Below are positions 1,469 to 57,905 of a stretch of DNA of 64,000 nt, one piece after another. Location of the stretch: positions 135,839-199,838 of the forward strand of contig CAKUWT010000001.1 of the NCBI GenBank assembly GCA_934699595.1. Direction: 5' to 3'. The translations under genes and the position numbers were made by a program. Source of the DNA: an uncultured Patescibacteria group bacterium. Its GTDB lineage: Bacteria; Patescibacteriota; Minisyncoccia; Phycocordibacterales; UBA918. Position 1 is the stretch's first letter. Each line of letters opens with the position of its first letter. The notes below the pieces were generated by a model. It was not told the DNA's origin. It did not search any database and saw only the letters and a list, made by a program, of their open reading frames with translations.

Positions 1469-1849
1469 ATGGCCACCTTGCCCGCAATACCAGTCTCTCA
1501 GCAATTTGGCATCATCATCGTTGGCGACCGTAAATTGCTGGGGTCGATGTCGAAGTTGGTTAAAATTGCCAACCAGTACAATCCTGGTCAAAGTAATGAA
1601 CGTGCCACGATCACCTTCAAGTATGTGGAGCCAAACCGAGTCACCGGCTTGGTCACGTTCGAGAATTATCTCAGTTTGACAATTCATCCCAAGGACGGGC
1701 TCTGTCTCTACTTTAGAATCTTTCGATCGGCACACAAGGGTGTTACCCTGGCCGAACTTCAGAAGTTGAGTGAGAGTATCGTAGTTGCCAGTCGAGGAGC
1801 CGTCAACAAAGTTGAACCCCACCAGGCTGGGTACTACTTCCATGTCTAA
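1469..1849 (+). CDS. Hypothetical protein (126 aa)
   Basis: A strong SD (AAAGGAG) sits 7 nt upstream of the ATG, and an intrinsic terminator hairpin lies just after the stop. This ORF competes with the antisense ORF 1385..1855. Confidence 0.4.
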   Translation: MATLPAIPVSQQFGIIIVGDRKLLGSMSKLVKIANQYNPGQSNERATITFKYVEPNRVTGLVTFENYLSLTIHPKDGLCLYFRIFRSAHKGVTLAELQKLSESIVVASRGAVNKVEPHQAGYYFHV

Positions 1850-3546: not shown

Positions 3547-3649
3547 ATACTGAAGGGTCGCTTCGTGAGACGGCGGCAACAAAAATAGTGGGCGGAACCA
3601 AAGGTTCCGCCCACTATTTTCTCTCCACCCTCTTTTCTACACCAAAATA

Positions 3650-4243: not shown

Positions 4244-4290
4244 ACATCATCGTAGGACATTAGAAACTAGCCGCTTGTTAATTGGAAAAG

Positions 4291-4325
4291 CAGCCGGGCC
4301 ACCTTCGTGGCCCGGCTGGTTTTTA
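4291..4325. terminator. Hairpin terminator downstream of the minus-strand gene 4343..4657
   Basis: CAGCCGGGCCAC-cttc-GTGGCCCGGCTG is followed by a T-run. Confidence 0.5.
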
Positions 4326-4755: not shown

Positions 4756-4983
4756 ATGACCAAGGAGGAAGAACAGCTACATTGCGATTTTCATCACTGG
4801 TGTTCTACAAACAAGATTCCGATACAGGATAGATTTCGTCGCCTGGAGGGACACTTGGCTGATTTCTACATTGAGAAGAACGTCCCCTTCTCATCGTTTT
4901 CTTTAGCCGCAGATGTGCGGTTGTTACGATCGATTGCCGCCAGGAATCGATCAAAAAAGAGCGCGCGCATCAAAGCGGTTTGA
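4756..4983 (+). CDS. Hypothetical small protein (75 aa) with Cys/His cluster HCDFHHWC
   Basis: A GGGAGGG SD sits 8 nt upstream of ATG 4756. A strong intrinsic terminator follows immediately. Confidence 0.5.
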   Translation: MTKEEEQLHCDFHHWCSTNKIPIQDRFRRLEGHLADFYIEKNVPFSSFSLAADVRLLRSIAARNRSKKSARIKAV

Positions 4984-5002
4984 AATCCAAAACGGTAACC
5001 CA

Positions 5003-5031
5003 CCTGGGCCACTCTGTGGCCCAGGTTTTTT
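5003..5031 (+). terminator. Rho-independent terminator
   Basis: CCTGGGCCAC-tctg-TGGCCCAGG followed by tttttt. Confidence 0.6.
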
Positions 5032-5061: not shown

Positions 5062-5802
5062 TTAGTCCTCCAGCCACCTTGGTATCACCCGTTCGCCACG
5101 TACCGCAATTTTATCCGCCTCTTCAATGCGAAACTCTCCCACCTGCGTCCGACGAAGATTTTGCAACACTGCTGGATAGCCAAGACGCCTCCCTAACTCT
5201 TTAGCCAGCGAACGAACGTAAGTACCGCTACCTACTCGGAAGCGTATCGTCACCACCATCAAAGCTTCTGTTTGATGATACTCCACTCGCATCAGCTCCG
5301 CTTCTTCCACTCGCATCAGCCGCTTTGGTAATTCTGCCTCGCTCAACATCTCTCCTTTGGCCAACGCTCGTCGAGCGCGCTGATAATAAGTCACCCCGTC
5401 TTTTTTAATGGCACTAAAAGCTGAGACTGTTAGCTCCGTCTCCCCGACCAAAGAAGTCAGTGCTTTAACAATCTCTCCATCCTCCAACTTTGGCACGGCT
5501 ACTTTCTCAGTGATTTCTCCCTCCATATCGTCAGTAGTACGCGCTTCACCAATTCTAATCTCTGCCAGATATTCCTTATCAAGCTTGATCAGCTCAGTTA
5601 ATTTCTTAGTCCCTGGTCCAACCCCAAGAATCATCAATCCCGTTGCCAACGGATCCAACGTACCCGCATGCCCCACCTTCCTTACACCTAACTGTCTACG
5701 TAAACTAGCCACTACTGCAAACGAGGTCACGCCGTACGGTTTATCCAGTAGATAAATCTCTTTTATTTCTGGTTTTTCTTTTCTCGCTTCCATACTAATC
5801 AC
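5062..5802 (-). CDS. truB: tRNA pseudouridine(55) synthase TruB
   Basis: KPYGVTSFAVV...GHAGTLDPLATGLMILGVGPGTKK is the TruB catalytic motif with the Asp in GTLDP. Confidence 0.9.
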   Translation of the reverse strand: MISMEARKEKPEIKEIYLLDKPYGVTSFAVVASLRRQLGVRKVGHAGTLDPLATGLMILGVGPGTKKLTELIKLDKEYLAEIRIGEARTTDDMEGEITEKVAVPKLEDGEIVKALTSLVGETELTVSAFSAIKKDGVTYYQRARRALAKGEMLSEAELPKRLMRVEEAELMRVEYHQTEALMVVTIRFRVGSGTYVRSLAKELGRRLGYPAVLQNLRRTQVGEFRIEEADKIAVRGERVIPRWLED

Positions 5803-11560: not shown

Positions 11561-11998
11561 TTATTCCGGCGGCAGGCTGGCGAGTAATTTTTTCCACTGA
11601 CGATGTCGGTGCCAGTAAAAGTATTCGCTGAAGAGCCAGACCGCCACAGTGGCCCAACCAGCATTTATCGTGACCACATCGGTTAGGATAGATGATTCCC
11701 GACCATGCCCAGTAATAGACATTTGGTGCTGCCAACTAATAATCAATCCACCTGATTCTTCGGTTGTCATGATCCCTTTCTGTTCATTAATCTCAACAAA
11801 TGTCACGAAGTGATCTGTTGAAGGGCCACCACATACTGAGGGGAGAATGTTATACCTCTCGCCTCTTTCCCACTTTTCTGGTAAGGAGCCGTACGTGACG
11901 ACTCCTTGCGCTACCTTCGCCAGAGTATCGCCTCTCAATAAGAGTTCCCAGACGACTTCCTCTGATGCTGGTAGAATAGTTTGTCTTTTAACGTGCAT
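11561..11998 (-). CDS. SRPBCC (polyketide cyclase / START-like) family protein
   Basis: I chose the start MHVKRQ at 11998 because GGAGG lies 8 nt upstream. The composition pattern (W/E-rich with a C-terminal amphipathic region) is consistent with SRPBCC proteins, but the call is moderate. Confidence 0.5.
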   Translation of the reverse strand: MHVKRQTILPASEEVVWELLLRGDTLAKVAQGVVTYGSLPEKWERGERYNILPSVCGGPSTDHFVTFVEINEQKGIMTTEESGGLIISWQHQMSITGHGRESSILTDVVTINAGWATVAVWLFSEYFYWHRHRQWKKLLASLPPE

Positions 11999-12216
11999 CA
12001 CTCTCACCTCCTGCACCTTTAAACACTGAGCCCAAAAAGAACTCCGCCTACCCAACATTAAACAGGACAAACCTTAACTAAGCAACCCTACTCAGCCAGT
12101 TTGGCATTCTATACTTAATTTGCTATCATAACTGCACCTTTTTATTGTCTTCCTGACAAAAAAGGCGCGACATAAGTGTGACATCTGCCACAAGTGACAA
12201 TACACTTATGCGATTT

Positions 12217-12288
12217 GGCCCTATCGTCTAACGGCTAGGACACATCCCTCTCACGGATGAAATCCGGGTTCGATTCCCGGTAGGGTCA
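12217..12288 (+). tRNA. tRNA-Glu (anticodon CUC)
   Basis: Cloverleaf by hand. The acceptor is GGCCCTA/TAGGGTC (one G-U). D stem GTCT/GGAC. The anticodon stem CATCC/GGATG carries the loop CT-CTC-AC. The T arm is CCGGG-TTCGATT-CCCGG and the discriminator is A. No CCA is encoded. Confidence 0.8.
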
Positions 12289-12628
12289 CAAAACGAGACT
12301 TCGTCTCGACTTAAGGAGCGCGCCTCTCATCATAGACCAGCCAGAGGACGATATCGACAGTAAGATGATTAAGGATATTGTCGAGCAGGTCTGGAAAGCA
12401 AAGACTAAGCGACAGCTTATCTTTGCCAGCCACAGTGCAAACTTCGTAGTAAACGGTGATGCGGAACTTGTTGTGTGTTGCGATTACGTTAAAGCAGGAG
12501 TTCAGACCAGCGGCATGATCAAGCTTATTGGTGCTATCGACAACGAGAAGATCAAGGAAGAAATCACATTAGTCACCGAGGGAGGCCGTGCGGCGTTCAA
12601 GCTTCGTATGGATAAATACGGATTTTAA
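12289..12628 (+). pseudogene. C-terminal remnant of an ABC/AAA_21-type ATPase (Walker B, D-loop and H-loop only), truncated at the tRNA
   Basis: The frame is open from inside the tRNA 3' end. It reads ...SAPLIIDQPEDDIDSKMIKDIVEQVWKAKTKRQLIFASHSANFVVNGDAELVV..., which has Walker B (LIIDQPE), D-loop and H-loop (ASHS) motifs. There is no Walker A, ABC signature or credible N-terminus. Confidence 0.45.
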
Positions 12629-12684: not shown

Positions 12685-14055
12685 TTACTCGGTCTTGGCT
12701 TCCGGTGCGCCATCACCGCTCGGAGCGGCTTCGGTCACCTTGGCCGGAGCCGGGTTGGTCAGCTTGCCGACGATGGCTTGGCCAAGCGGGCTCTGCGCGA
12801 ACGCTTCGACCGCCGAAGCCAGATGGGTACCACCCTTGGAGGTGAAGAGATCCATGACGTTGGTCATGCCTTCGCCGGGCTTGCCCGTGTTGGCGATGAC
12901 CTTGACGTCGGCCTTCTGCAGCGCTTCGGCTTGCTTGCCGCCAACCACCACATAGCCCTTGATGCCTTCGATGGTCATCAGGTACTGTTGGTAGCCGACG
13001 TTGCCGCCGATTTCCTTCGCCAGGACGATCTGCGCCTCGACAGGAGCGAGTTGCATGGCCTTCTCGGCCGCTGCATTCGCCACGCCGACTGCTTCGATAC
13101 CCTGGGCACGCTTGCGCTCGGCTTCGAGCTGGCCATCGGCGATGATCACCGTGGTCTGCTTCTCTTGCTCGGCGGCCACGACCTGCTTGTCCTTCTCGAT
13201 TTCGGCCGTGCGCACTTCTTCGACGCGCTTGACCGCCATGTCGCGCTCCTTGGTCTCCTTCTCCTGCGTCAGAACTTCCTGGCGCGCGAGCTGGTTGGCG
13301 ATGCCGACAGCCTTGTCCTTCTCGGCAGTGCGCTCACCGACGGCCTGTTCGGCCTGCTGGCGCTGGATGTCGACTTCACGCTTGGCGGTGATTTCGGCCA
13401 TCTCGGCGGCCCGCATGTTCTCGGCAACGTCACGCCGGCTCTCCATCTCGATCTGCGAAGTCTTCTTCGCCATGATGTTGGAGATGACCTGGCTGCCACG
13501 ACCGTCACGGATGTCCATCAGTTCCATGGACTTGACCGGCTCGACACCCCACTGCTTGAGCTGTTCGACGACTTCAGCCGTGAAGGCTTCGCCGAACTTG
13601 GAACGCTCGAGCATGATGTTGTCGATCTTGTCGCCGGCGAGGACCTTGCGGACCGCGCCCTGGACGATCTGGTGCAGCTGTGCCTGGAGCTCGTCGATGC
13701 TGGCCACCCGCTGTGCGGCGAGTGCCGTGTCGGCGATGCGGAAGAACGCCGTGACGTCCACCATGAAGGGAACGCGATCGGCGTCGTAGGCTTCGTAGCC
13801 GTCGAGCGAGAGGTCGAAGTTGCTCACCGGCAGCTCGATGACCGTGACCCCGAACTTCGGAATCCAGCTGGGCCAGCGATAGTAGACGTTGCCGCCTTCG
13901 AGGCCGGTGCCGTAGGGCATCGTGGTGCGACCGCGCTGGACAATGTGCACCATGTTGGTGCTCACGACCTTTCGGTAGAGGATGGCGAGAATGATGGCAA
14001 AGACCACCAGTACGCTGATCAGGACGGACCCGATCAGAACAGGGATGTTGAACAT
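12685..14055 (-). CDS. Flotillin / SPFH (band 7) family protein with very high G+C
   Basis: There is an N-terminal TM helix, then the SPFH domain and a long EA-rich coiled-coil typical of flotillins (YqiK/FloT-like). I chose the start MFNIP at 14055 because GGAGAAG lies 6 nt upstream. Codons are strongly GC3-biased, unlike the rest of the window. Confidence 0.8.
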   Translation of the reverse strand: MFNIPVLIGSVLISVLVVFAIILAILYRKVVSTNMVHIVQRGRTTMPYGTGLEGGNVYYRWPSWIPKFGVTVIELPVSNFDLSLDGYEAYDADRVPFMVDVTAFFRIADTALAAQRVASIDELQAQLHQIVQGAVRKVLAGDKIDNIMLERSKFGEAFTAEVVEQLKQWGVEPVKSMELMDIRDGRGSQVISNIMAKKTSQIEMESRRDVAENMRAAEMAEITAKREVDIQRQQAEQAVGERTAEKDKAVGIANQLARQEVLTQEKETKERDMAVKRVEEVRTAEIEKDKQVVAAEQEKQTTVIIADGQLEAERKRAQGIEAVGVANAAAEKAMQLAPVEAQIVLAKEIGGNVGYQQYLMTIEGIKGYVVVGGKQAEALQKADVKVIANTGKPGEGMTNVMDLFTSKGGTHLASAVEAFAQSPLGQAIVGKLTNPAPAKVTEAAPSGDGAPEAKTE

Positions 14056-14738
14056 GTGCTTCTCCTGTGGAATTGGAGGGTATTCTCCACTTTCCACATT
14101 AACATACTATGACGTATCTGTCAACCCTACGTAATGGTTCAATACCTTCGCAACACCATAAGCTATAGGTTGCTCTATCTTGCCTACAGAGTAGCTAATA
14201 CAGGCAACGGGGCTTATACAGAAACGCCACCGAAGTAGCTCACACGAAACAACACCGAGCAGGCCACGCGAGCGGATGCGAGCGTGCCTATGCGAGGTGG
14301 TTGCACAGTGTGAGCGGACTCTCGATATACCACACGCGCTGTATACGGGAAGCGCGCCTCGCTTGACGCGAGGACGGAAAAAAGCGTAGTGGTAGGCTCT
14401 CAAGTGAGATGGAGACTATAACGAAGCTTTTTGGAGGACGAAGCGGCGACCCCAAACCAAAGAAATATCCTTTCAATTTTTTGTCGGCTCCTCCCCAGAC
14501 CCCTCCACCGAAAAAATGATTGTAAGGAAATTTCTTTGTTTTGGGTGCCGAGTGCAGCGAGGCAGCGAGGCGCGCCAAGCTCCAATGCGTACGCGGAAGT
14601 ATAAAGCCACCACGCGCTCGGCGCGTTGCAGGTTCACCGCTTCGCGGTGTAGTGAGTTAGAGCGCGATGCGCTAATACATCACAAAGTAACAAAACTGTA
14701 ATTTTACAATATAAGTCGACCAACTATACAGCATCAAA

Positions 14739-14896: not shown

Positions 14897-16429
14897 ATGA
14901 GAAAAACTTTACTTATTTTAGGAGTGGTGTTTTTGTTGTTGGCGATCGGTGCTGATGTTTGGTTTAGTCGCGAAAACAAATTTTTTGCTATAGACAATAA
15001 CCAGATCGGTCTAGAACCTGACGAATATATTGTCCCATCAAAATACAAAGATATTAAAGTTAAAACCATCAATGAGCAATCGGATGATGAGCAACATCGC
15101 TACACCCTTCACGCCTCTTGGCCAGTCACTGATAATGACACCATCAATCAGACAGTTGAAAACTTCAGCAACAACTTTATTGAAGAATATCGGACTCGGT
15201 CAGTTGAGATTGAAGCCTCTCGCCTAGAATATATGGCTGAAACCGGTGAGGACGGTGTCACCTTCCATGCTGACTACAACCTATCTTTTGACGTGGCATT
15301 TGCGAGCGATGATTACCTAGCTTTTGCTTTTACACGTTACCGCAATACTGGGAATACTGGCACTCAAGAAGCTGCCACGATGATTTTTAACCGACAGTCA
15401 GGTGAAGAGGTACCAGTGGCCAATCTTTTCGTTAGCAATGATTATTTAAATAGATTATCGGATTTAGTTAGGGAAGATTTATATGCTCGGGTCAATAAGG
15501 AAGCACCAGAATCGGAGTTTGAATCTAGAGAGGAAAAAGAGAGATGGATAAACAATATGCAGAAAATGATTGACAACGGCACCGAACCAACAGCAGAAAA
15601 CTTTAAAAGCTTGGTGATTAATGACGAGGGAAAAATGGCTGTCTATCTTGACCGCTACCAGGCCGCACCAGGATATTGGGGTGTTTTAGAAATTGATCTT
15701 CCTTTAGAAAGCTTCATCGAATATTTGACCCCGCCAGTGCTAGAGATTTTTAATTTAGAAAATAAGCCCAGTGAACAGGCTGCTCCCGAGGAGCAGCCTG
15801 TTGCTAATGACCGTACTTCTAATGACAACGTAAACTGTACGATAGATAAGTGTATTGCCCTTACTTTTGATGACGGACCTTCAGTATACACTGAAGGTCT
15901 TTTGAAAACTTTGGTTAATAAGGGAGTGAAGGCGACTTTTTTTATGCTTGGCAGCCATGCCAAGGTGCAACAACAAACCGTAATCGATGTCAGTAAAGCC
16001 GGTATGGAAATCGGCAACCACACTTGGGATCATAAACAACTGACTAAGCTTGACGAAGCTGGTGTTGACAGCGAAATCAACGACACCCGTTCCCTGCTAG
16101 AAAAGATTACTGGTAAGTCCGTGGCTCAACTACGTCCTCCTTATGGTTCTTTCAATGACACTGTTAAGCAAATTGCTAACGGTCCAATTATCCTCTGGAA
16201 TGTTGATACTGAGGATTGGAAACATCGTGACAGCGCTTATATCAAAAATTACGTGGCAACTCATGCCAAACCAGGTGCTATTATTCTCATGCACGACATC
16301 CACCCTACCACTGTGGAGGCCGTTCCCACCATGGTGGACGAGCTAAAACAGGCTGGCTATACCCTCGTCACCGTTAGCGAATTATTTGGGGGACATTTAG
16401 TGACGGGAAAGATTTATTCTGGTAGATAA
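14897..16429 (+). CDS. PdaC-like polysaccharide/peptidoglycan deacetylase (N-terminal DUF3298/DUF4163-like region plus NodB/CE4 domain)
   Basis: A TM/signal N-terminus is present. The CE4 motifs are TFDDGP, HTWDH, LRPPYG and ILMHDIH. Confidence 0.75.
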   Translation: MRKTLLILGVVFLLLAIGADVWFSRENKFFAIDNNQIGLEPDEYIVPSKYKDIKVKTINEQSDDEQHRYTLHASWPVTDNDTINQTVENFSNNFIEEYRTRSVEIEASRLEYMAETGEDGVTFHADYNLSFDVAFASDDYLAFAFTRYRNTGNTGTQEAATMIFNRQSGEEVPVANLFVSNDYLNRLSDLVREDLYARVNKEAPESEFESREEKERWINNMQKMIDNGTEPTAENFKSLVINDEGKMAVYLDRYQAAPGYWGVLEIDLPLESFIEYLTPPVLEIFNLENKPSEQAAPEEQPVANDRTSNDNVNCTIDKCIALTFDDGPSVYTEGLLKTLVNKGVKATFFMLGSHAKVQQQTVIDVSKAGMEIGNHTWDHKQLTKLDEAGVDSEINDTRSLLEKITGKSVAQLRPPYGSFNDTVKQIANGPIILWNVDTEDWKHRDSAYIKNYVATHAKPGAIILMHDIHPTTVEAVPTMVDELKQAGYTLVTVSELFGGHLVTGKIYSGR

Positions 16430-16483
16430 GTCTTTAGATTAAACAAATTTTACTTGCTGGGTCTTTTATAAAATATACGTCGG

Positions 16484-16518
16484 ATAAACCCCGGGCGGAG
16501 GCAAAGCCTCCGCCCGGG
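16484..16518. repeat. GC-rich palindromic hairpin element, copy 1
   Basis: The sequence is ATAAACCCCGGGCGGAGGCAAAGCCTCCGCCCGGG. The 28-bp core CCGGGCGGAGGCAAAGCCTCCGCCCGGG recurs exactly at 17176. Confidence 0.6.
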
Positions 16519-16620
16519 TCTGGCTGATTCAAACGATTGTTTACTGGTCTGGTCTATGTTATTCTCGAAAACAGTCCTGGTGCGATTCCAGCTCCGTTCC
16601 TTTTTGCCAAGGAGGCAGCC

Positions 16621-17082
16621 ATGTCGGACATCACCGTCTCATATAAACTAGAGATTATCAAAGATGCAGTGCCGTTCCACAACGCACAAATCACGAACCA
16701 AGAGATCTCTGGGCGGAAGACTTCCCGTTATCTGATCGTTAGCTTTATCGTCCCAGATCCATCCAGGCCTGCCCTCTTGGTGGTGGAAGGTCATGCAAGT
16801 CACCAGTTTGGCTTTCTCGTGTTCGACCGACACCTCAAGCAGCTGCCTGTCTCTGAGAAGCAATCATTTTGCTTGGGTGCCGGCGATGTACCCTACCTGT
16901 CACTAGAGGAGTTAAGGAGAAGATACCCCTGGATAAGAATACTGGACCAGGAACTCTGCTTCAACAATTTAACCAAGCAGTTCAAGGTCATGGGATTGTG
17001 GAGAGAAATAGTCTCTTCTGGCTATCCCTGGGTCCGCAAGCAACAGCTGATAGAGGAGTTGAAGAACATCATTCTTAGATAA
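16621..17082 (+). CDS. Hypothetical protein (153 aa) bracketed by the two palindromic repeat copies
   Basis: I chose the start MSDITV because AAGGAGG lies 5 nt upstream. Its GC is higher than its neighbours. I recognise no family. Confidence 0.5.
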   Translation: MSDITVSYKLEIIKDAVPFHNAQITNQEISGRKTSRYLIVSFIVPDPSRPALLVVEGHASHQFGFLVFDRHLKQLPVSEKQSFCLGAGDVPYLSLEELRRRYPWIRILDQELCFNNLTKQFKVMGLWREIVSSGYPWVRKQQLIEELKNIILR

Positions 17083-17175
17083 CTCCCCCAAATAGCAAAG
17101 CAAACCGCCGCAGTCAATGACAGCGGCGGTTTTACTAATTTCACTGATAGCTTCTTGGCCAGGATGGAGAATCCT

Positions 17176-17209
17176 CCGGGCGGAGGCAAAGCCTCCGCCC
17201 GGGGTTTAT
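17176..17209. repeat. GC-rich palindromic hairpin element, copy 2
   Basis: The sequence is CCGGGCGGAGGCAAAGCCTCCGCCCGGGGTTTAT. Its right flank GGTTTAT is the reverse complement of the left flank ATAAACC of copy 1. Confidence 0.6.
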
Positions 17210-17266
17210 TACTCATCTCCAGACAATTTTGTTATTAGCTCTCCATTTTTTCTTCCTCGATCACCA

Positions 17267-19657
17267 CTACTTCGCCACCAGGTCATCAATCTCACACACT
17301 CCCGCTACGCAAGCCATGGCTTTGGCGCCTTCGGTATTATCGCTTTGTTCATAGGTGACGATTTTGGCAAAATCTACACCCGCAAAATTCTTCAACATTT
17401 TTTCGTAAGTCTTTTTATCAATGGCTTCGTATGGAGCTAACTGATACACATGATTACTGCGTGGTAAGAAAGATAAACCACCAACGATATCCCAATTTTG
17501 GTAAACCCAGTTACCAGTTTCCAGCCACTCATCCTCTCCAACCGAGACGGTCACGGACGGGTTGTGTTCAGTGAAATTTTCTTTCACTACCTTCCAATGC
17601 TCTAGCTGATCAATAGCGGTCAAATCATCCTGAAAGATTTTCCCTGGTGCCTTCACCGGAAACTCCAATACAAAAGTAGTAGCAGTCTCTTCAGTGTAGC
17701 CTACCTCTGGATGATACGGCACTCCTTGATCCTTTAGCATTTTAAATAACGAGTCTGTGGCTGAAATTCGAACTCGGCGGATATAGTACGGGCTGTGACG
17801 CGTATGCATACCACTGGAAGCATCGGTTAATTGTGAGACAGTTCCTGATGGCTTTACCGCAGTGACTGAAGTGGAAGGGTTGATACCCATTTTAGCGGCG
17901 TAAACCTTATTCCATTTAATTGCTTCCTTGCGTAATTTCTGAAGAATTTGCGGATCACGTGCAGCTTCTGAATCCCACTGTCCGGTAATAGAAATACCTA
18001 AGAGTCTCTCCGCTTCACAATTCTCCTGCCACTCTTTAGACAGATATGGGAAGTAGGTTAAAGTAGATTGGTAGGTTCCTAGAATAGCGGCAATTTTTAT
18101 TTTGCGCAGCAAAGTTTCTTCAGTATCATCTTCACGAGCTACTACTTCTGATAGGTTACAAAATTGTTTAGACTTCAGAATGATCTCTCCGCAAGGGTTA
18201 GTTCCCACAGATTTGATAATTTCTCCATTTTGGATATAGCCAGTTTGTTCCCACTCCGCGATACGTCGCTCAGGCAGTTGACCGGTTAAGGCACCTCGAT
18301 TGAAGATGCCTCGTTCACCAGAACCACTCTTCGCGAGAGACAACCACTCTTCCAAGAAGGTGACATTATCTGGCTTCTCGTTATAGACAGCAGAATTATT
18401 TGCCATGGCGCGCTGCGGCTCGGTGTTCCAAAACTGCCCGTCTTTAGCGTGACGCATTTGCTCATCTTCTAAATCAGATAACGAGATCAGGGCACTGCGA
18501 CGCACGCCACCCGCCACCACAATCTGGCCGATGTAGCAGACAATATCGTGTACATCAAGAGTGGTTAAGCGACGACCCTGACGAGAGAGAATCTTTTCTC
18601 GTGCATAGCGCATCAGGTCAATCAGGGGCTGGGGCCCAGAACTCTTACCGCCCATGGTGTGTAGACGCGCTCCTGCTGGACGCAATTTAGAGTAATCAAA
18701 GGCGATATCCTTGCCGGCAAACCAAGCCTTTAGACCAATAGTGAGAGAATCGGCCCACCCTTCTTTACTATCAGCTACCACATGCGTAGCTAGCTTTTCT
18801 CCGGTCTGCCTCTGGATCTGGGGCAAGGCCTGCACGTTTGCTTCTTCTACAGAAAAGCCTACCCCGGCACCACACATAGAGAGGTACATAATCTCTGCAA
18901 AATCTTCCAACCGAGCCGGAGCAATGAAAGAGCAGTTGTAACCAGTGACGTTAGTTTTTCGAGTGGCCTCGCCTGCTCCCCACATCAAACGCATCGACGG
19001 CATGGCCTCTTGTTTTAGGATCGCTTGACGTACTTCAGCATAATCTTTTTCAGAAATAGCAGCACCAATATTCTCTCGCATGAAGTCTACGTAGCGATCG
19101 ACTGTCTCAACCCAAGTTTCTCGCCTTTGCTCATTTTCAATCCACCGTGAATAGGTACGGTAATAGATAAACTCAGCCAAAGGGTTGCGGAAGTACTGCT
19201 TGGATTCTTCTGCCATTTTTTTCACGTGCTCTGGTACCACATTCCCCTTCTCCCGTTCTTGTGAACGTTTTTCACGATACAAAATATAAGCTTTGGCTGT
19301 CTTAGGGAATTGCAAATTGATTAACTCAGCCTCCACAATATCCTGAATACCCTCCACCGTTGGTGCTGGATTTTCGTAAACCTTTAAGTGTTCTTTGTAA
19401 AGCTTAATCACCCCCTTCTCCACCACTTTAGCTACCTGCTTAGCTTCTTTAGTACCACCCTCAAAGGCGGCCTGCATAGCCTTAGTAATGGCTACCTCAA
19501 TCAACTCCGGATTATAATCAACTAGCGTACCGTCCCGCTTCTGGACCTGATTAGGCTTGGTCGCCGACTTAGTAGCCTGCTTTGATTTAGCTGACTTTCC
19601 GATAGTTTGCTTGGTTTTCTTTAATTCTTTAGGCATAAAACTAACAATATTTACCAC
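17267..19657 (-). CDS. nrdJ: Ribonucleotide reductase, class II (adenosylcobalamin-dependent, NrdJ-like) with N-terminal ATP-cone
   Basis: An ATP-cone (KRDGTLVDYNPELI) is present, the active-site motif is TNPCGEI, and length is 796 aa. The start codon is GTG, with AGGAGG about 14 nt upstream. Confidence 0.8.
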   Translation of the reverse strand: MVNIVSFMPKELKKTKQTIGKSAKSKQATKSATKPNQVQKRDGTLVDYNPELIEVAITKAMQAAFEGGTKEAKQVAKVVEKGVIKLYKEHLKVYENPAPTVEGIQDIVEAELINLQFPKTAKAYILYREKRSQEREKGNVVPEHVKKMAEESKQYFRNPLAEFIYYRTYSRWIENEQRRETWVETVDRYVDFMRENIGAAISEKDYAEVRQAILKQEAMPSMRLMWGAGEATRKTNVTGYNCSFIAPARLEDFAEIMYLSMCGAGVGFSVEEANVQALPQIQRQTGEKLATHVVADSKEGWADSLTIGLKAWFAGKDIAFDYSKLRPAGARLHTMGGKSSGPQPLIDLMRYAREKILSRQGRRLTTLDVHDIVCYIGQIVVAGGVRRSALISLSDLEDEQMRHAKDGQFWNTEPQRAMANNSAVYNEKPDNVTFLEEWLSLAKSGSGERGIFNRGALTGQLPERRIAEWEQTGYIQNGEIIKSVGTNPCGEIILKSKQFCNLSEVVAREDDTEETLLRKIKIAAILGTYQSTLTYFPYLSKEWQENCEAERLLGISITGQWDSEAARDPQILQKLRKEAIKWNKVYAAKMGINPSTSVTAVKPSGTVSQLTDASSGMHTRHSPYYIRRVRISATDSLFKMLKDQGVPYHPEVGYTEETATTFVLEFPVKAPGKIFQDDLTAIDQLEHWKVVKENFTEHNPSVTVSVGEDEWLETGNWVYQNWDIVGGLSFLPRSNHVYQLAPYEAIDKKTYEKMLKNFAGVDFAKIVTYEQSDNTEGAKAMACVAGVCEIDDLVAK

Positions 19658-19912
19658 TTATTAATAAACTTCCTCCTTTTAGGAGTTAATTGTAGCAGTG
19701 TATTCACCCAAGGCTGATGTGGATAAAGCATCTCGATACAAAATTATTGCTCTGTAAAATCTCACCTTGTAAATACGCTTACTTAGCTACTTATTTCTGC
19801 CGGGCAAAATATTTTCTGGTTAAAAATGTAAACAGTGGCGGGGAGCAAAGCTCCCCGCCACTGTTTATTCCCTCCAACCTCTCCTACCCGCACCCCATCG
19901 AACTCGCTTTAG

Positions 19913-25123: not shown

Positions 25124-27532
25124 ATGTCATACGAAGAATTCCGCCGCCGCATTGATACCGCTCGTCAGATCCTGGTCGGCGCCGTACCATCACCAGCTGG
25201 GCAGATCGACCAGATCACCTATGCGCTGATGTACAAATTTATGAACGACATAGACGACAAGTCTGCCTCGCTCGGTGGCAAGCGGAGCTATTTCACTGGC
25301 GAATACGCTCAGTACAACTGGCACAACCTAATGTCGGCCAGTCTCGGTGCACAGGAGCGTCTTGAATTATATCGTCAAGCCATCCAGACCATGACTAAAA
25401 ACCCTGCCTTGCCGCCGATGTTTCGTGAGATTTATCAAAATGCCTTTTTGCCGTTTAATTCTGCCAATGTCTTGACGCTATTCCTCAAAGAGATCGACAA
25501 ATTCAACCACGGCGAAAGTGATGACATCGGCGACGCCTACGAGTACCTGTTATCAATCACTGGCGCTCAGGGCGACGTCGGTCAGTTCCGTACACCGCGT
25601 CACATCATCAAATTTATCGTCGAGGTCGTAAATCCGAGAAAAACCGATACCGTACTCGATCCAGCCTGTGGCACCGCTGGCTTTTTGATCTCCGCTTATA
25701 GTCATGTCCGCGCCCAGCACGACGGTGTCGACGCCGAAGGCAAGCCTAACGACGAAAAGCGCCTATCTGCCGACGAACTCGACAAAATCCACCACAACTA
25801 CCGTGGCTTCGACATCGACCCTACTATGGTGCGCACTGCGAAGGTCAATCTATATCTGCATGGTTTTAAAACTCCAGAAATCATCAACCACGACTCCTTA
25901 AGTAGTGAAGATTACTGGAACGAACGTTACGACGTCATCCTGGCTAATCCGCCATTTATGACACCAAAAGGCGGCATCCAGCCGCACAAAAAGTTTAGTA
26001 TTTCTGCCAACCGCGCCGAGGTGCTGTTTGTCGACTATATCGCCAGCCACCTCAAGCCAACCGGCCGCGCCGGTATCGTCGTACCAGAGGGTATTATCTT
26101 TCAGAGCGGCAAAGCGTACAAAGAACTGCGAAAAAACCTAGTCGAAAATTACTTGTATGCTGTCGTCAGCCTACCTGCTGGCGTATTCCAACCTTACAGT
26201 GGTGTCAAAACCAGCGTGTTATTACTTGACAAAGAACTCGCTAAGCAGCGCGACAAGATACTATTCATAAAAATTGAAAAAGACGGCTTTAGTCTTGGCG
26301 CTCAACGAGCAAAGTTGTGTGAAGATAGCGGCAATCACCCAAATCTTTGCCCTCAACACAGCGACCTACCACATGCACTTCATGATTTAGCTGCGTTCAA
26401 GGCCGGCCAAGAATTTGCAAGTGAGCTTGCGCACAGTGTGCTACGTAGCAAAATTGCGGAAAGTGGTGACTACAACTTGAGTGGCGATCGATACAAAATC
26501 GTTACAAATAGTAATCTTGACGTCGAATTTATTGAATTGGGTGAAGTAGCCGAGGTGTATCAGCCAAAGACAATTACCTCTAAGGAGGTAAAAGACGAAG
26601 GAGAGTATAAGGTCTTTGGAGCGAATGGCGTAATCGGATACTATAGTCAGTACAATCACGAGCATGCAGAAGTAGCTGTGACTTGCCGGGGGGCAACCTG
26701 CGGAACAGTGAACTATACTGAACCGAAGAGCTGGATTACTGGAAACGCTATGGTTATTTCACCAAAGAATAGCAATAATCTAAACAAGAGATTCTTATAC
26801 TATATTTTGCAGAACGACTCAATCAAAAACGTCATTAGTGGCTCTGCCCAGCCGCAAATTACTCGAAGTTCACTAGCTCCATTCAAAATCCCACTCCCTC
26901 CAATCGAAATCCAGCGCGAAATCGTCGCCGAACTCGACGGCTACCAAAAAATCATCGACGCCGCCCAAACTATCGTCCAAACCTACAAACCCACCATCAA
27001 GATAAATCCGGAATGGGACATGAGGCTGATTGGGGAAATTGCCGAAGTACGTAAAGGAAGCGCAGTTACGAAGGCGCAGATTAATCCAGGTGGCTCGGTA
27101 CCTGTTGTTGCAGGCGGACAAAAGCCTGCCTATTACCACAATGTATCCAACCGTGAGCCAGACGTAATCACTATCAGCGCGTCGGGAGCATACGCAGGCT
27201 TTGTGAATTACTGGACGGAACCCATCTTCGCTTCAGACTGCTCCACGATTCAAGCAATAGACGACAAAAGAGCTCTGAACAGGTACATTTTTGAGTCACT
27301 CAAGAGCCTTCAGGGCGATATATACAAACTCCAGATGGGTGGAGGACAACCTCACGTCTACCCAAAGGATATTGTAAAAATAAGCATCCCACTCCCACCA
27401 ATCGAAATCCAACGCGAAATCGTCGCCGAACTTGAAGCCGAACAAAAACTCATCGATGCCAACAAAAAACTCATCGAAATCTACCAACAAAAAATCAAAT
27501 CCAAAATCGCCGAGGTCTGGGGAGAATCATAA
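25124..27532 (+). CDS. Fused type I methyltransferase and specificity subunit (HsdM-HsdS single polypeptide)
   Basis: Residues about 1-460 form the HsdM_N helical domain plus the N6-adenine MTase (LDPACGTAGFL and NPPF motifs). Residues about 465-802 form two short target-recognition domains, each ending in the HsdS conserved repeat IPLPPIEIQREIVAEL. Confidence 0.8.
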   Translation: MSYEEFRRRIDTARQILVGAVPSPAGQIDQITYALMYKFMNDIDDKSASLGGKRSYFTGEYAQYNWHNLMSASLGAQERLELYRQAIQTMTKNPALPPMFREIYQNAFLPFNSANVLTLFLKEIDKFNHGESDDIGDAYEYLLSITGAQGDVGQFRTPRHIIKFIVEVVNPRKTDTVLDPACGTAGFLISAYSHVRAQHDGVDAEGKPNDEKRLSADELDKIHHNYRGFDIDPTMVRTAKVNLYLHGFKTPEIINHDSLSSEDYWNERYDVILANPPFMTPKGGIQPHKKFSISANRAEVLFVDYIASHLKPTGRAGIVVPEGIIFQSGKAYKELRKNLVENYLYAVVSLPAGVFQPYSGVKTSVLLLDKELAKQRDKILFIKIEKDGFSLGAQRAKLCEDSGNHPNLCPQHSDLPHALHDLAAFKAGQEFASELAHSVLRSKIAESGDYNLSGDRYKIVTNSNLDVEFIELGEVAEVYQPKTITSKEVKDEGEYKVFGANGVIGYYSQYNHEHAEVAVTCRGATCGTVNYTEPKSWITGNAMVISPKNSNNLNKRFLYYILQNDSIKNVISGSAQPQITRSSLAPFKIPLPPIEIQREIVAELDGYQKIIDAAQTIVQTYKPTIKINPEWDMRLIGEIAEVRKGSAVTKAQINPGGSVPVVAGGQKPAYYHNVSNREPDVITISASGAYAGFVNYWTEPIFASDCSTIQAIDDKRALNRYIFESLKSLQGDIYKLQMGGGQPHVYPKDIVKISIPLPPIEIQREIVAELEAEQKLIDANKKLIEIYQQKIKSKIAEVWGES
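26885..26940 (+). repeat. HsdS conserved-region direct repeat, copy 1
   Basis: About 56 bp, roughly 90% identical to 27384..27440 (ATCCCACTCCCTCCAATCGAAATCCAGCGCGAAATCGTCGCCGAACTCGACGG). Confidence 0.6.
27384..27440 (+). repeat. HsdS conserved-region direct repeat, copy 2
   Basis: Direct repeat of 26885..26940 inside the same ORF. Confidence 0.6.
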
Positions 27533-28392: not shown

Positions 28393-29664
28393 TCAGCCAA
28401 CCTCTCCGCCTGCCACCATGCCTGTGGTCCAGCAGAGCTGGAGGGAGTAGCCGCCTGAAGGGCGGCGAATATTAAGCAAGTCTCCAGTCACTAAAAGATT
28501 CTGATACTGCTTCACCCGCATGGTGCGCATATCTACTGCCTCTAAATCTAATCCGCCGTCGGTAATTACCGCTCGTTTAAATCCCATCAAAGACAAAATT
28601 GTCAAGGGTAAGGCTTTCAAAGTACTACCAGTCTCCCGCCTCTCTGCTACTGTAATACTATGTACCTTCTTGTCTCCGTCCACCCCAGAGAAGAGTGGCA
28701 GCATGGCGGCACCCGCGCCTAATGGGCCAAACTCATTAAAGATGTTTTTGAGATTTTTGTTTTTATGGACGGCAAAGACGGCTTGTAATTTTTGATCAAG
28801 AGTATGGTCGTCAAGCTCGGGATAGATATCTATCGTAGCTGTCACTTCTCCCTCCTCTAGCAAATCTTTTACGCGGGTAGCGGCGTTTAAAATTAGTGGT
28901 CCGGAAATGCCAAAATGCGTGCAGAGTATGTCCCCTCGCAAGGTAAAGCGACGCTTTTGGTCAACAAAAAAACTAATCCGCACATCTTTCAATGTGGTAC
29001 CAGCTAGTTTTTTCACCCACTCCTCCTTTACCTGAAGCGGTACTACCGAGGGTGAGGGCTCGGAAACAGGCAAACCTAGGTCTCGCAGCCAAGTAAAGCC
29101 GTCACCTGTTGAGCCAGTCTCTGGATGAGACAGGCCGCCTGTCGCCAATAAATAATTCCTAGCGGTAAGAGTCTCTTTGCCTACCTGCACACCCGTCACC
29201 TGCTTATCGGTATGAGTAATTTTGGTCACCGCTGTATTGAGGCGCACCTCTACTCCACCAGCTTTTAGGTAATCATGCAGCACTAGAAACACATCAGCAG
29301 CACGCTCACTAACCGGAAATACTCGCTGCCGGTCTTCAGTCTTGAGCGGTAAACCACGCTCGGTAAACCACTTCATCGTCGCCCGGTTACCAAACTTAGT
29401 AAAAGCTGAAAAAAGGTACTTCCCCGCTGCACCATAATGAGCGAGGAGTTGATGAATATCGGTCTCAGCGTTGGTAATATTACATCGTCCGCCGCCAGTG
29501 ATTTTGAGCTTCTGACCTAGTTCGGCGTTTTTCTCCAGGAGGAGAACGCGTGCGCCGCCTGCGGCGGCGCACGCGGCAGCCATCATCCCCGAAGCGCCAC
29601 CACCCACCACGATCAAGTAGTACGGCTCACCCCCCTTCGTACCCTTTATCCCCGCTTTTTGCAT
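28393..29664 (-). CDS. NAD(P)/FAD-dependent oxidoreductase, HI0933/BaiN-like flavoprotein
   Basis: The N-terminal Rossmann motif is VVGGGASGMMAA. The LLEKN...GGGRCN motif is typical of the HI0933 family. Confidence 0.75.
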   Translation of the reverse strand: MQKAGIKGTKGGEPYYLIVVGGGASGMMAAACAAAGGARVLLLEKNAELGQKLKITGGGRCNITNAETDIHQLLAHYGAAGKYLFSAFTKFGNRATMKWFTERGLPLKTEDRQRVFPVSERAADVFLVLHDYLKAGGVEVRLNTAVTKITHTDKQVTGVQVGKETLTARNYLLATGGLSHPETGSTGDGFTWLRDLGLPVSEPSPSVVPLQVKEEWVKKLAGTTLKDVRISFFVDQKRRFTLRGDILCTHFGISGPLILNAATRVKDLLEEGEVTATIDIYPELDDHTLDQKLQAVFAVHKNKNLKNIFNEFGPLGAGAAMLPLFSGVDGDKKVHSITVAERRETGSTLKALPLTILSLMGFKRAVITDGGLDLEAVDMRTMRVKQYQNLLVTGDLLNIRRPSGGYSLQLCWTTGMVAGGEVG

Positions 29665-37608: not shown

Positions 37609-37992
37609 ATGACAGACGCTAGTCAAATGTCTGCAATCGGGGAGGCTCGCTGGCTACTGCAAGTAATTGCTGACGGCCGTAATGAAGACGAGACCCTAGC
37701 TTTGATTCAGTGGTTTATTGATCTGACCGATGAGCACGGGATAACAGATAATGATTTACTGGAGGGCCTCACTGATCTGGCAGAGGTAGAAGCGTTTTGT
37801 GCTGATGCCAATAAAACCCTTCAAGACTTCCTCAAAAATCATCGCCATGGCTCGGCGGGGATTATGGAGAGAGTCGGTCTCTTGCGACAGTTCTATGACC
37901 TGATCGATAAAGCAAATTTGCCCCCCGCTTATTTTGGAGTCACTAAGAGTGAGCTAGAAACTCACCTTGATGAGATCAAAAAGACTAAATGA
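37609..37992 (+). CDS. Hypothetical acidic protein (127 aa)
   Basis: AGGAGG SD with 5-nt spacing, and a terminator follows. Confidence 0.55.
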   Translation: MTDASQMSAIGEARWLLQVIADGRNEDETLALIQWFIDLTDEHGITDNDLLEGLTDLAEVEAFCADANKTLQDFLKNHRHGSAGIMERVGLLRQFYDLIDKANLPPAYFGVTKSELETHLDEIKKTK

Positions 37993-39274: not shown

Positions 39275-39410
39275 GTCTTTATATTATAGGCTACTTTTTG
39301 ATAATTCCAGAGCTGGTGGGGATAGTAGGCGGCAGCTTTGCTGCCGCCTACTATCCCCACCAAGATAATTCTGAGCAGTCCTCCAACCCTAAACTCCTTC
39401 CCTTTACTCA

Positions 39411-43743: not shown

Positions 43744-44139
43744 ATGGGAGAGATTATCAAGTTTCCAATATCCAAACAAACTACTAGGACGCCTGCTCAG
43801 AAGTCGGCAAGCTCACTGTCTAAGGAGATGGTGATTGCTCGGCTTCAAGCCCGGTTCATGCTCGAAAAGATGCGGACGGCCCGAGAGACACTTCGGCAGG
43901 ACCTGGTCAGCCTTATCGAGAACTCTGGTAATGCTCGAGATCTTGAGGCGGAGACTGAGCTGATCCAAGACTTCAATAATATGATCAGCCAGCTAGATGC
44001 CTCCCTCAGCCACCTATGTGCCCAAGGCAGTTTTACCTTGGAAGAAATTGACTGTTCAATTTCTGAGCACTACTACCTCGTAGGGGTTCGAGAGCCGGGA
44101 CATCCTCCACGCCCCTACACCGAGAAGTGGCATGGGTAA
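43744..44139 (+). CDS. Hypothetical protein (131 aa)
   Basis: GGGAGGAG SD and its own terminator. Confidence 0.5.
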   Translation: MGEIIKFPISKQTTRTPAQKSASSLSKEMVIARLQARFMLEKMRTARETLRQDLVSLIENSGNARDLEAETELIQDFNNMISQLDASLSHLCAQGSFTLEEIDCSISEHYYLVGVREPGHPPRPYTEKWHG

Positions 44140-44421: not shown

Positions 44422-44781
44422 ATGTCGTCGGAAAAAAGTCCTGAGATTCGCGAACAGCTTGCCACCGCTCTTGAGGCCCTGGCTCAACTCTATCAGTTGC
44501 GCGATGAGCTTGCATTGGAAATTGCCAAGTTGGCCGACCGCCTACCCCACAACATTACCGAATGGACCCCTCGTGACCGACTCATTTGGCAAGAGGGCGA
44601 CAGGGGTATTCGCGACTCATTTGGTGCTCGCTCCCAAGTGCAGAGACAGAAAATTGACACTGTTCTGAAAAAGGGTGGTGTGACCTTGGCTGACCTTGAC
44701 ATCACTGCCTCTGAGCTAGAATCTTTAACACTTTTCTTGAAAAGTTCTGCCGACTGGCCACATGACACCAGCCTGCATTGA
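44422..44781 (+). CDS. Hypothetical protein (119 aa)
   Basis: I chose the start MSSEKS because GAGGAG lies 6 nt upstream. A terminator follows. Confidence 0.5.
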   Translation: MSSEKSPEIREQLATALEALAQLYQLRDELALEIAKLADRLPHNITEWTPRDRLIWQEGDRGIRDSFGARSQVQRQKIDTVLKKGGVTLADLDITASELESLTLFLKSSADWPHDTSLH

Positions 44782-49785: not shown

Positions 49786-50334
49786 TTACAACAGCGGGAG
49801 TTTTTGGAACTCCTTATTGCCGTCACCAAGGCGACCGGTGCCGATCTTCATAACCTCTATCTGAAAACAGCTGTCAGAGGTCATACCGAAAAAATCGACA
49901 TCATCAGGTCCGAGCAGTACCCGAACTGGTCCCGAAACCCGCAGACGAGACACCCCGTGGACAGCTCCTGTACGCCAGCCAATGTGCCAGTAGGTCACTC
50001 CACCGTTGGCGGGAGCAATAACCACATACCGCTGCCAGCCGCCTCGCGTAAAGGTGAGGTGTCGTCTGAGGCCCGAAAGTCGATAATGACTGATGGCGTG
50101 AGTATCACCAGACAATCGCACCATCATTCCTTGACTGAGGTACTCAGTCTCACTGGGCTGGAGGTGGTGATTATTCCACAAATGAGTCCGTTGAGGACTT
50201 TCATTCAGGAAATTCCAGTTGAGGGTCAGCAAACCTCGCAGCACCATGACTCCCTTCATCACCGGCCACATAAGCAGGTCGGCTATTCGACCGACCAGGC
50301 CCTGCGGACGAACCCGCAGCATTGAAACAAGCAT
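49786..50334 (-). CDS. Hypothetical protein (182 aa)
   Basis: The SD AGGAGGAAAAG sits directly before ATG 50334 and a palindromic hairpin follows the stop. The overlapping plus-strand ORF 49597..50325 is low-complexity with no signals. Confidence 0.5.
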   Translation of the reverse strand: MLVSMLRVRPQGLVGRIADLLMWPVMKGVMVLRGLLTLNWNFLNESPQRTHLWNNHHLQPSETEYLSQGMMVRLSGDTHAISHYRLSGLRRHLTFTRGGWQRYVVIAPANGGVTYWHIGWRTGAVHGVSRLRVSGPVRVLLGPDDVDFFGMTSDSCFQIEVMKIGTGRLGDGNKEFQKLPLL

Positions 50335-57782: not shown

Positions 57783-57840
57783 AATGCTCTTAGTATAAAC
57801 GACGAATCATTTCTGGCAATACGGGGCTTAGGATGGCGGG

Positions 57841-57888
57841 AGGTAAAAAGCGGGGGCGGCCACTTGTGGCCGCCCCCGCTTTTTACCT
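57841..57888 (-). terminator. Terminator of greA
   Basis: About a 20-bp GC-rich stem: AGCGGGGGCGGCCAC-ttg-TGGCCGCCCCCGCT. Confidence 0.55.
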
Positions 57889-57905
57889 CTTCGCATCAAC
57901 CAGAC

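Follow-up and report, generated by a model that had tools for sequence, protein, structure and literature searches.

A duplicated hairpin between two convergent genes

The stretch analyzed here is 64,000 nucleotides of the genome of an uncultured Patescibacteria group bacterium (Minisyncoccia; Phycocordibacterales; UBA918), taken from contig CAKUWT010000001.1 of assembly GCA_934699595.1 (positions 135,839 to 199,838) and referred to below as the window. At 16.5–17.2 kb of the window, a polysaccharide deacetylase gene on the plus strand and a gene for a class II ribonucleotide reductase (RNR) on the minus strand converge on a site that holds two identical GC-rich hairpins and, between them, a single open reading frame (ORF) of 153 amino acids (Table 1). 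A preliminary description, made from the sequence alone, had proposed that a gene cassette was inserted into, or recombined at, a terminator hairpin already present between the two genes, with duplication of the hairpin core. Pfam confirms the convergent pair of genes on which that proposal was built.

The repeated core, CCGGGCGGAGGCAAAGCCTCCGCCCGGG, is 28 bp long and occurs exactly twice in the window, at the two positions first reported, with no match in the 100 dinucleotide shuffles that set the chance expectation. A third match returned by the search (16490–16517, minus strand, three mismatches) arises because copy 1, being palindromic, matches its own complement. Identity between the two copies extends over exactly 28 bp, since their neighbouring bases differ (C versus T on the left, T versus G on the right). 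Both loops read AAA on the same strand, so the two copies are direct repeats and not terminal inverted repeats. The duplicated block consists of 12 nt of left arm, the AAA loop, and 13 nt of right arm, and it ends where the GC-rich stem gives way to the AT-rich outer arms.

Each core carries one outer arm only, and copy 1 has its T-rich tail on the minus strand alone. Joined around one core, the arms complete a perfect palindrome of 41 nt (stem of 19 bp, loop AAA), whose folding energy is −39.7 kcal/mol as RNA and −25.5 kcal/mol as DNA (z = −8.7). The preliminary description had the palindrome and the left arm, ATAAACC, right; its right arm was one base too long, since the extra G is the last base of the core and the arm itself is the 6-nt GTTTAT. 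Built in silico, the empty site reads ...GTCGGATAAACCCCGGGCGGAGGCAAAGCCTCCGCCCGGGGTTTATTACTC....

The strong hairpins of this genome are perfect palindromes with 18–23 bp per arm, an A-rich outer left and a T-rich outer right side, and often an aaa or ttt loop. Native terminator hairpins at 3582–3620, 19829–19867, 39314–39362, and 57840–57889 are typical. The rebuilt 41-mer fits this usual bidirectional-terminator pattern exactly, which bears out the likeness originally seen in the joined palindrome, and among the strong hairpins the two core copies alone have an A/T arm on a single side. Together, these two observations are the main support for a single native bidirectional terminator having been split.

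The locus is base-for-base identical in three assemblies from different pipelines: European Nucleotide Archive (ENA) assembly ERZ27286916 (202 kb, the source contig), a second ENA scaffold (400 kb), and a Logan contig. Their identity to the window is 100% across the 12.6–22.4 kb spanned per locus. Because three assemblies from different pipelines agree, the duplicated-hairpin locus is not an assembler artefact; all three represent one genome, and the structure is reproducible.

Table 1. Features of the duplicated-hairpin locus, in window coordinates.
Feature	Position	Strand	Remarks
Polysaccharide deacetylase (DUF3298 + Polysacc_deac_1)	14897–16429	+	Pfam 1.2e-36; gene calls
Outer left arm ATAAACC, A-rich, unduplicated	16484–16490		Complementary to 17204–17209 plus the last G of the core
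Core copy 1, 28-bp GC	16491–16518		With C16490 gives a 13-bp stem, loop AAA; DNA fold −19.4 kcal/mol, z = −6.7
Inserted cassette, 657 bp	16519–17175	+	Promoter-like region, ribosome-binding site, ORF, own terminator, 43-bp tail
Possible promoter TTGTTT-N17-TATTCT, TGT just upstream of −10	16537–16565	+	7/12 consensus positions; inferred only
Canonical Shine-Dalgarno (SD) sequence AAGGAGG, 5 nt before ATG	16609–16615	+	Atypical for the genome
Orphan ORF, 153 aa	16621–17082	+	Coding-like; foreign codon usage
Cassette's own bidirectional terminator (AAACCGCCGC...GCGGCGGTTT)	17102–17132		19 nt after the stop codon; z = −7.2
Core copy 2, 28-bp GC	17176–17203		12-bp stem, loop AAA; T-rich tail on plus strand
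Outer right arm GTTTAT, T-rich, unduplicated, 6 nt	17204–17209		Read from sequence
Class II (B12-dependent) RNR with ATP-cone	17267–19657	−	Pfam; homologues

The cassette and its orphan ORF

The cassette has a GC content of 0.482, against 0.43 in both flanks. It is thus richer in GC than its neighbours, as had been remarked, but the rise is modest and lies inside the range of native genes. The GC content at third codon positions (GC3) is a clearer outlier, at 0.61 in the ORF versus 0.38–0.55 in almost all native genes. The ORF is coding-like: its frame scores best of the six, and an equally long stop-free run appeared in 3 of 2000 shuffles. Its codon score of −0.026 bits per codon lies under that of every native in-frame chunk of 153 codons, the lowest of which reaches 0.047.

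The ribosome-binding site deviates from host practice as well. An SD core, even as a 4-mer, stands upstream of 1 of 40 long host ORFs, and a candidate start within the first 50 codons follows a 5-mer SD core in 5 of 40; the 20 nt upstream of host genes are 72.5% A+T and rich in TAAA, TAAT, and AGTA. The putative promoter, read directly from the sequence, is weak and falls under the threshold of the promoter scanner; hairpin copy 1 ends 18 bp upstream of its −35 element. At the other end, RNR transcripts would encounter no U-tract hairpin before the cassette's own terminator.

A search of 5.8 billion protein clusters and an exhaustive HMMER search of 1.84 billion representatives, standing for about 15 billion proteins, returned no relative of the ORF other than itself; one match, P0122, proved spurious, being a translated tandem repeat. 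The profile search that the preliminary description had suggested for this ORF has been made, and it found no family: neither Pfam, PHROGs, nor PADLOC recognizes the protein, in keeping with its first characterization as a strongly SD-led gene of no recognizable family. Cassette DNA and ORF gave no blastn or tblastn match in viral contigs, phages, or plasmids. A phmmer search of the PDB yielded a single weak match, to the TLDc-domain chain 6r82 (E = 1.4), and alignment of the ORF with 17 TLDc fragments by hhalign reached a weak 34% probability over 38 columns; the Pfam TLD model does not match. We make no claim of a TLDc identity and regard 6r82 as a weak pattern match only. A single-sequence AlphaFold model of the ORF was unusable (mean predicted local distance difference test score 38.9). 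The insert therefore looks foreign on three independent counts, namely the lack of relatives, codon usage, and the ribosome-binding site.

What gene callers annotated in two of the three public assemblies is not the 153-aa ORF but a spurious antisense ORF of 64 aa that passes through hairpin copy 2 (17022–17216, minus strand), and protein databases may therefore under-represent genes of this kind.

A native-like 41-mer, two one-armed copies, and a foreign-looking insert together support the reading that a gene unit entered a terminator already in place, the hairpin core being duplicated in the process; we give this reading a probability of roughly 0.8. Two observations that had been named beforehand as telling against it, a multi-copy core resembling repetitive extragenic palindromic (REP) sequences and an ORF conserved in synteny, were not made: the core is present in two copies in about 84 kb, that is, the 64-kb window plus 20 kb beyond its ends (about one-fifth of the genome), and the ORF is without relatives.

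Routes to the duplicated core

No further copy of the core with up to six mismatches is present in these 84 kb. The same region is free of transposase, integrase, recombinase, and cas genes (by Pfam for the window genes and by gene calls for the flanks), extending the earlier remark that no transposase or integrase is present, and it holds no CRISPR array. The 23-bp inner part of the core has no match in viral sequences and recurs in nine metagenome contigs, once in each and with unrelated flanks; these contigs range from 36 to 66% GC, and each inner core sits within its own, different, longer palindrome. Since the nine matches are single and lie in differing palindromes and GC contexts, the 23-bp stem reads as a generic terminator sequence that has arisen independently.

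A survey for hairpin-bearing direct repeats of 18 bp or longer covered 1.12 Mb, made up of the window, 83 Patescibacteria loci, and a small number of metagenome loci. Three cases emerged: the core pair itself, an artefact (L007), and an IS200-like element (L075). The survey contains no other non-artefactual duplication of a hairpin around an orphan gene, and the window contains no other hairpin-bearing direct repeat of at least 18 bp. A candidate second case, the hairpins at 4286–4323 and 5002–5026, was put down to sequence that GC-rich stems have in common. The two proposals of the preliminary description, a mechanism of insertion targeted at hairpins and a small mobile element of the non-autonomous kind, thus go unsupported, with no further core and no recombinase in the 84 kb and no related cassette. 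The locus is a tidy one-off insertion scar rather than a demonstrable mobile-element family.

The account that we regard as the best has about an even chance of being correct as a whole: a single integration of a foreign one-gene unit into a native terminator, with duplication of the core by way of a staggered cut. In one past event, a foreign and self-contained unit (possible promoter, SD, 153-aa ORF, and own terminator) would have been placed in the 41-bp bidirectional terminator common to the convergent deacetylase and RNR genes. Two dyad-symmetric nicks at the base of the hairpin or of a cruciform, where GC gives way to AT, would have produced a stagger of ~27–28 nt; the foreign DNA would have been joined between the nicks, and fill-in would then have copied the core on both sides. 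The GC stem-loop would thereby have been duplicated over 28 bp (or, equally well, over a symmetric 27 bp plus one chance base), while the AT-rich outer arms stayed single, one per side. Such an event would be a hairpin-sized case of the 'insertion with long target duplication' discussed below. We think the staggered cut the most likely route to the duplication, at odds a little short of even. We prefer it to a crossover for the originating event because a foreign donor carrying an identical 28-bp sequence specific to this terminator is very unlikely, because the insert already has its own terminator and had no need to bring a copy of the host hairpin, and because the repeated segment has the dyad at its centre and reaches, to left and right, just to the GC/AT boundary, as dyad-symmetric nicking would give.

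Several points weigh against this account. The direction of the event is read from anatomy and composition only, there being no empty site or polymorphic relative: an RNR-based search of 185,579 species-representative genomes and 5.8 billion protein clusters returned only the same genome (100%) and relatives at no more than 78% identity with a different gene order. There is one instance only, and we infer the nick-and-fill-in step, the enzyme, and the joining activity alike. The duplication is even-numbered at 28 bp, so that strict dyad symmetry requires one chance base. The boundaries of the insert are also tidy, lying 18 bp before the putative −35 element and 43 bp after the cassette's own terminator, and such boundaries are more readily accounted for by recombination acting on regulatory hairpins than by random capture of a fragment.

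It is on the tidy boundaries that a Campbell-type single crossover does better than the staggered cut, and we treat it as a serious rival, albeit an unlikely one. A small circle bearing the cassette and one identical 28-bp core would have recombined with the chromosomal hairpin; the circle junction would read ...GGAGAATCCT-core-TCTGGCTGATTC... (AATCCT-core-TCTGGC). The order flank-core-insert-core-flank is exactly that of a single crossover, and RecA-dependent exchange needs a minimum length close to 28 bp. The hairpin 18 bp upstream of the putative −35 recalls the promoter-early stem-loops (PeSLs) of T4-type phages, in which PeSL-flanked orphan ORFs and mini-circles are documented (PMC2839356, PMC4122927). 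What speaks against the crossover is that it requires a donor with the identical core, and the core is unique in ~84 kb; outside this genome only its 23-bp inner part recurs, as unrelated single terminators. No multi-copy family of PeSL-like motifs is present, the origin of the first duplicated arrangement would go unexplained, and the cassette already has a terminator of its own. The same topology would fit site-specific integration, with the palindrome as the attL/attR core of a tyrosine or serine recombinase encoded elsewhere and the cassette trans-mobilized or a decayed remnant. Direct repeats of ~27–28 bp with inverted arms resemble recombinase core sites, and integrase-less remnants flanked by att repeats are known. 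We nevertheless consider this route improbable: the window and the 20 kb beyond it encode no integrase or recombinase, no related element turned up in protein-cluster, viral, phage, or plasmid collections, and the identity block is dyad-symmetric and stops at the GC/AT boundary, unlike the usual asymmetric restoration of a gene 3′ end. Nor is the locus the dif site of the chromosome, which marks the replication terminus. Throughout the 64 kb, GC skew stays negative and does not change sign at 16.5–17.2 kb, on which ground a dif/Xer target of the kind used by integrative mobile elements exploiting Xer (IMEX) was rejected; the GC-rich core is also unlike the dif consensus.

Membership of the IS200/IS605 family, either as an element or as a non-autonomous derivative in which the ORF is a very diverged Y1 transposase or a passenger, deserves a comparison with the third case of the survey. 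In locus L075, from a metagenome-assembled genome (MAG) of Candidatus Niyogibacteria (JACOVJ010000076.1), the 23-bp perfect hairpin ACTTGGAAGCGAGGCTTCCAAGT occurs twice, 696 bp apart (1590–2313), and brackets one IS200-like Y1 transposase ORF of 217 aa (Pfam Y1_Tnp, 1.1e-7), ~210 bp upstream of that genome's RNR gene. A real IS200-like element of the same layout thus stands beside RNR there, and our cassette comes close to it in size and anatomy, with ~713 bp, one ORF of ~150 aa, and hairpins in direct orientation at both ends. However, the ORF has no Y1_Tnp match even at E ≤ 1, while the L075 control matches at 1e-7, and the family was rejected on this test. BLASTP of the ORF against the L075 protein gives no alignment, the PDB search found no solved TnpA (its sole match being the TLDc chain at E = 1.4; the L075 protein, too, matches no solved TnpA), and inspection by eye shows no HUH motif. 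The unit has perfect rather than imperfect hairpins and is single-copy in 84 kb, and the complementary outer arms go unexplained by a family that inserts 3′ of a short target motif and makes no target duplication. We rate this origin as very improbable. Only slightly better are the prospects of there having been no insertion, with the ORF an old resident whose two flanking terminators became identical by gene conversion or convergence. The GC-rich terminator stems do share a small vocabulary (3588–3615 is 68% identical to the core), and nine other metagenome contigs acquired the 23-bp inner core independently, but this explanation must yield 28/28 identity, one-sided arms that are complementary across the pair, and the same loop orientation; the ORF, moreover, has no database relatives, and its codon usage and ribosome-binding site deviate from the host. 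An assembly or scaffolding artefact is the least credible of all. Such cases exist: in L007, a 55-bp hairpin-containing 'duplication' (5234–5443) surrounds a run of Ns, an N-gap between duplicated edges, and is a scaffolding artefact. At the present locus there are no Ns, the same sequence appears in MEGAHIT k141-style contigs, in a separate scaffold assembly, and in the Logan contig, the 28-bp repeat is shorter than assembler k-mers, and the insert is a coherent gene unit.

Other element classes were considered and set aside. An integron attC site, judged by complete R''-L''...L'-R' boxes, extrahelical bases, a length of 57–141 bp, and a nearby or remote IntI, was rejected, as one outer arm is missing from each copy, the stems are perfect and without bulges, the units measure 28–35 bp, and there is no integrase in the ~84 kb. 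A bacterial interspersed mosaic element (BIME) of the REP and REP-associated tyrosine transposase (RAYT) kind was rejected on the two core copies in the ~84 kb, both at this locus. A reading as 35-bp terminal inverted repeats failed on the AAA loops, which lie on the same strand, and on the absence of a target duplication outside 16484 and 17210. An RNA-element reading was dropped as well, since an Rfam search of 16400–17300 gave no match above noise.

Two observations from the survey stand apart from the question of origin. The L007 case is a reminder that hairpin duplications in MAGs need an assembly check. The L075 transposase ORF holds two in-frame variants of the ACTTGGAAGCGAGGCTTCCAAGT hairpin (1797–1820 and 2076–2103), encoding GSLASKL and GSDASKL; hairpin variants in frame within the ORF suggest that palindromic units were inserted into the transposase coding sequence.

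Setting, significance, and relation to known systems

Judged by its predicted fold, each core copy should still be a strong hairpin, and its sole T-tail points outward. Transcription leaving the cassette would therefore be stopped before running antisense into either neighbour. Deacetylase transcripts would reach copy 1 without a U-tract and may read through into the ORF, and RNR transcripts are probably stopped by the inner bidirectional terminator of the cassette. Recombination or slippage between the 28-bp copies would excise the cassette cleanly and restore the original terminator.

If the insertion reading is right, the locus is an unusually legible scar of gene acquisition in Patescibacteria, whose ancestral site is recoverable base by base and whose cargo is an entire expression unit of foreign origin. 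Terminator function would have been kept on both sides, so that terminators would be safe landing sites for new genes and the insertion would be reversible without a scar. The duplication corresponds to the GC stem-loop exactly, which points to DNA secondary structure deciding the positions of the two strand breaks. The value of the case is limited by its being a single instance with no comparator.

A more far-reaching idea, which we hold to be improbable, is that of a structure-recognizing or length-measuring integration activity that targets terminator hairpins or cruciforms and loads single foreign genes, its footprint being the exact coincidence of the duplication with a dyad-symmetric stem-loop. 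Candidates would be a Cas1- or casposase-like enzyme, a process coupled to a junction resolvase, or an activity of another kind. If it existed, it could be the route by which an SD-poor genome gained scattered small SD-bearing orphan genes, and insertion with long target duplication, so far unexplained, would gain a mechanism.

Small SD-bearing ORFs without a Pfam family occur elsewhere in the window, for example at 1469–1849 (+), 4756–4983 (+), 11561–12001 (−), 37609–37992 (+), 43744–44139 (+), 44422–44781 (+), and 49786–50334 (−), in a genome whose housekeeping genes almost all lack an SD. Several have a raised GC3 of 0.53–0.60 and low codon scores, and in most the stop codon is followed after 19–27 nt by a perfect hairpin of their own. 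As a class, they have the look of self-contained units that were acquired; the duplicated-hairpin scar is found only at the one at 16.6 kb.

The surroundings of the RNR gene have also changed. Relatives at 74–78% RNR identity (loci L084–L086, L096, and L097) share the order aldolase, unnamed ORF, DUF192, RNR, small ORF, TPR protein, and ATP synthase. Because the context of RNR in this genome is wholly different from that conserved neighbourhood, the region has been rearranged.

Upstream of the deacetylase, a tRNA-Glu gene (12217–12289) is followed by a strongly GC-rich Band_7/flotillin gene (12685–14055, minus strand; GC ~0.62, GC3 0.83, SD-led), and this in turn by a GC-rich gap of ~800 bp devoid of ORFs. 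In contrast to the remainder of the window, local GC skew is close to zero. The segment 12217–14900 may be a horizontally acquired island beside the tRNA gene. Within it, the ORF-less GC-rich stretch 14110–14700 folds significantly better than shuffles on both strands (z = −3.4 and −4.3), and Rfam yields nothing above noise; a decayed gene or a structured RNA so far undescribed could lie here. Farther on, a direct repeat of 113 nt (26888–27000 and 27386–27498; 80% identity, 498 bp apart) lies inside an 802-aa N6_Mtase/Eco57I/Methylase_S gene and probably represents target-recognition modules that were duplicated within a restriction-modification enzyme of type IIG or type I-like. Perfect hairpins with 13-bp stems also occur within coding sequence, in the deacetylase gene (15774–15802) and in a gene for a 423-aa flavoprotein (29547–29575), which is unusual for positions that are not terminators.

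Several known systems share part of this architecture. IS200/IS605 elements resemble the cassette in their size of ~0.7 kb, one ORF of ~150 aa, and identical hairpins on the same strand near both ends. Here, there is no detectable Y1 transposase, the hairpins are perfect, and the unit is single-copy; the outer arms rebuild a single palindrome, that of the target, and therefore imply that target sequence was duplicated, unlike in IS200/IS605. Integration by Cas1-Cas2 and by casposons shares a geometry, in that staggered attacks at the borders of a repeat, typically of 20–50 bp and usually dyad-symmetric, duplicate it around the incoming DNA. In vitro, Cas1-Cas2 integration sites have also been seen beside a non-CRISPR inverted repeat prone to form a cruciform, and recruitment is sequence-specific for the system's own repeat (PMC5389526). 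The insert here is 657 bp and not spacer-sized, and the 84 kb contain no array, leader, or cas gene; apart from the geometry of the duplication, nothing here fits CRISPR adaptation.

Phage morons are autonomous promoter-ORF-terminator units inserted between two genes. They have in common with the cassette a self-contained expression unit of deviant composition placed between unrelated genes; the context here is neither phage nor prophage, and to our knowledge morons are not defined by a duplicated hairpin scar. The PeSLs of T4-type phages are direct repeats in which terminator stem-loops beside promoters bracket orphan ORFs, and exchange between them can excise or insert an ORF as a mini-circle (PMC2839356, PMC4122927). 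An orphan ORF between stem-loop direct repeats is the shared element. PeSLs are a multi-copy family of hyperplastic phage regions, whereas the present pair is single and lies in an ordinary chromosomal neighbourhood, its repeat being a split copy of one native terminator and not two members of a family.

The closest documented kind of event is 'insertion with long target duplication', described by Furuta, Abe, and Kobayashi in 2010 for restriction-modification units without mobility genes whose unique target is duplicated as long direct repeats (PMC2853133). The targets often lie at gene 3′ ends or in intergenic spacers, the inserts deviate in composition from the genome, and cases are documented in several bacteria; the mechanism is unexplained, and DNA breakage is suspected (PMC2853133). 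The duplications span 46 to over 400 bp, with a 30-bp cut-off set to exclude the repeats of site-specific recombination (PMC2853133). Our locus shares the direct repetition of a unique, single-copy sequence around the insert (checked here in ~84 kb) and the lack of any transposase, integrase, or mobile-element gene in or next to it. It differs in its host, a member of the Patescibacteria, in its cargo, a single orphan ORF in place of a restriction-modification system, and in its length, which at 28 bp falls just under the cut-off. The most interesting difference is that the duplicated segment is the dyad-centred GC stem-loop of a palindromic terminator, a property unreported for the cases in PMC2853133. 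This coincidence of the duplicated segment with a dyad-symmetric hairpin is what is new here, and it offers a concrete, testable hypothesis for a class of insertions that has been catalogued but is mechanistically unexplained.

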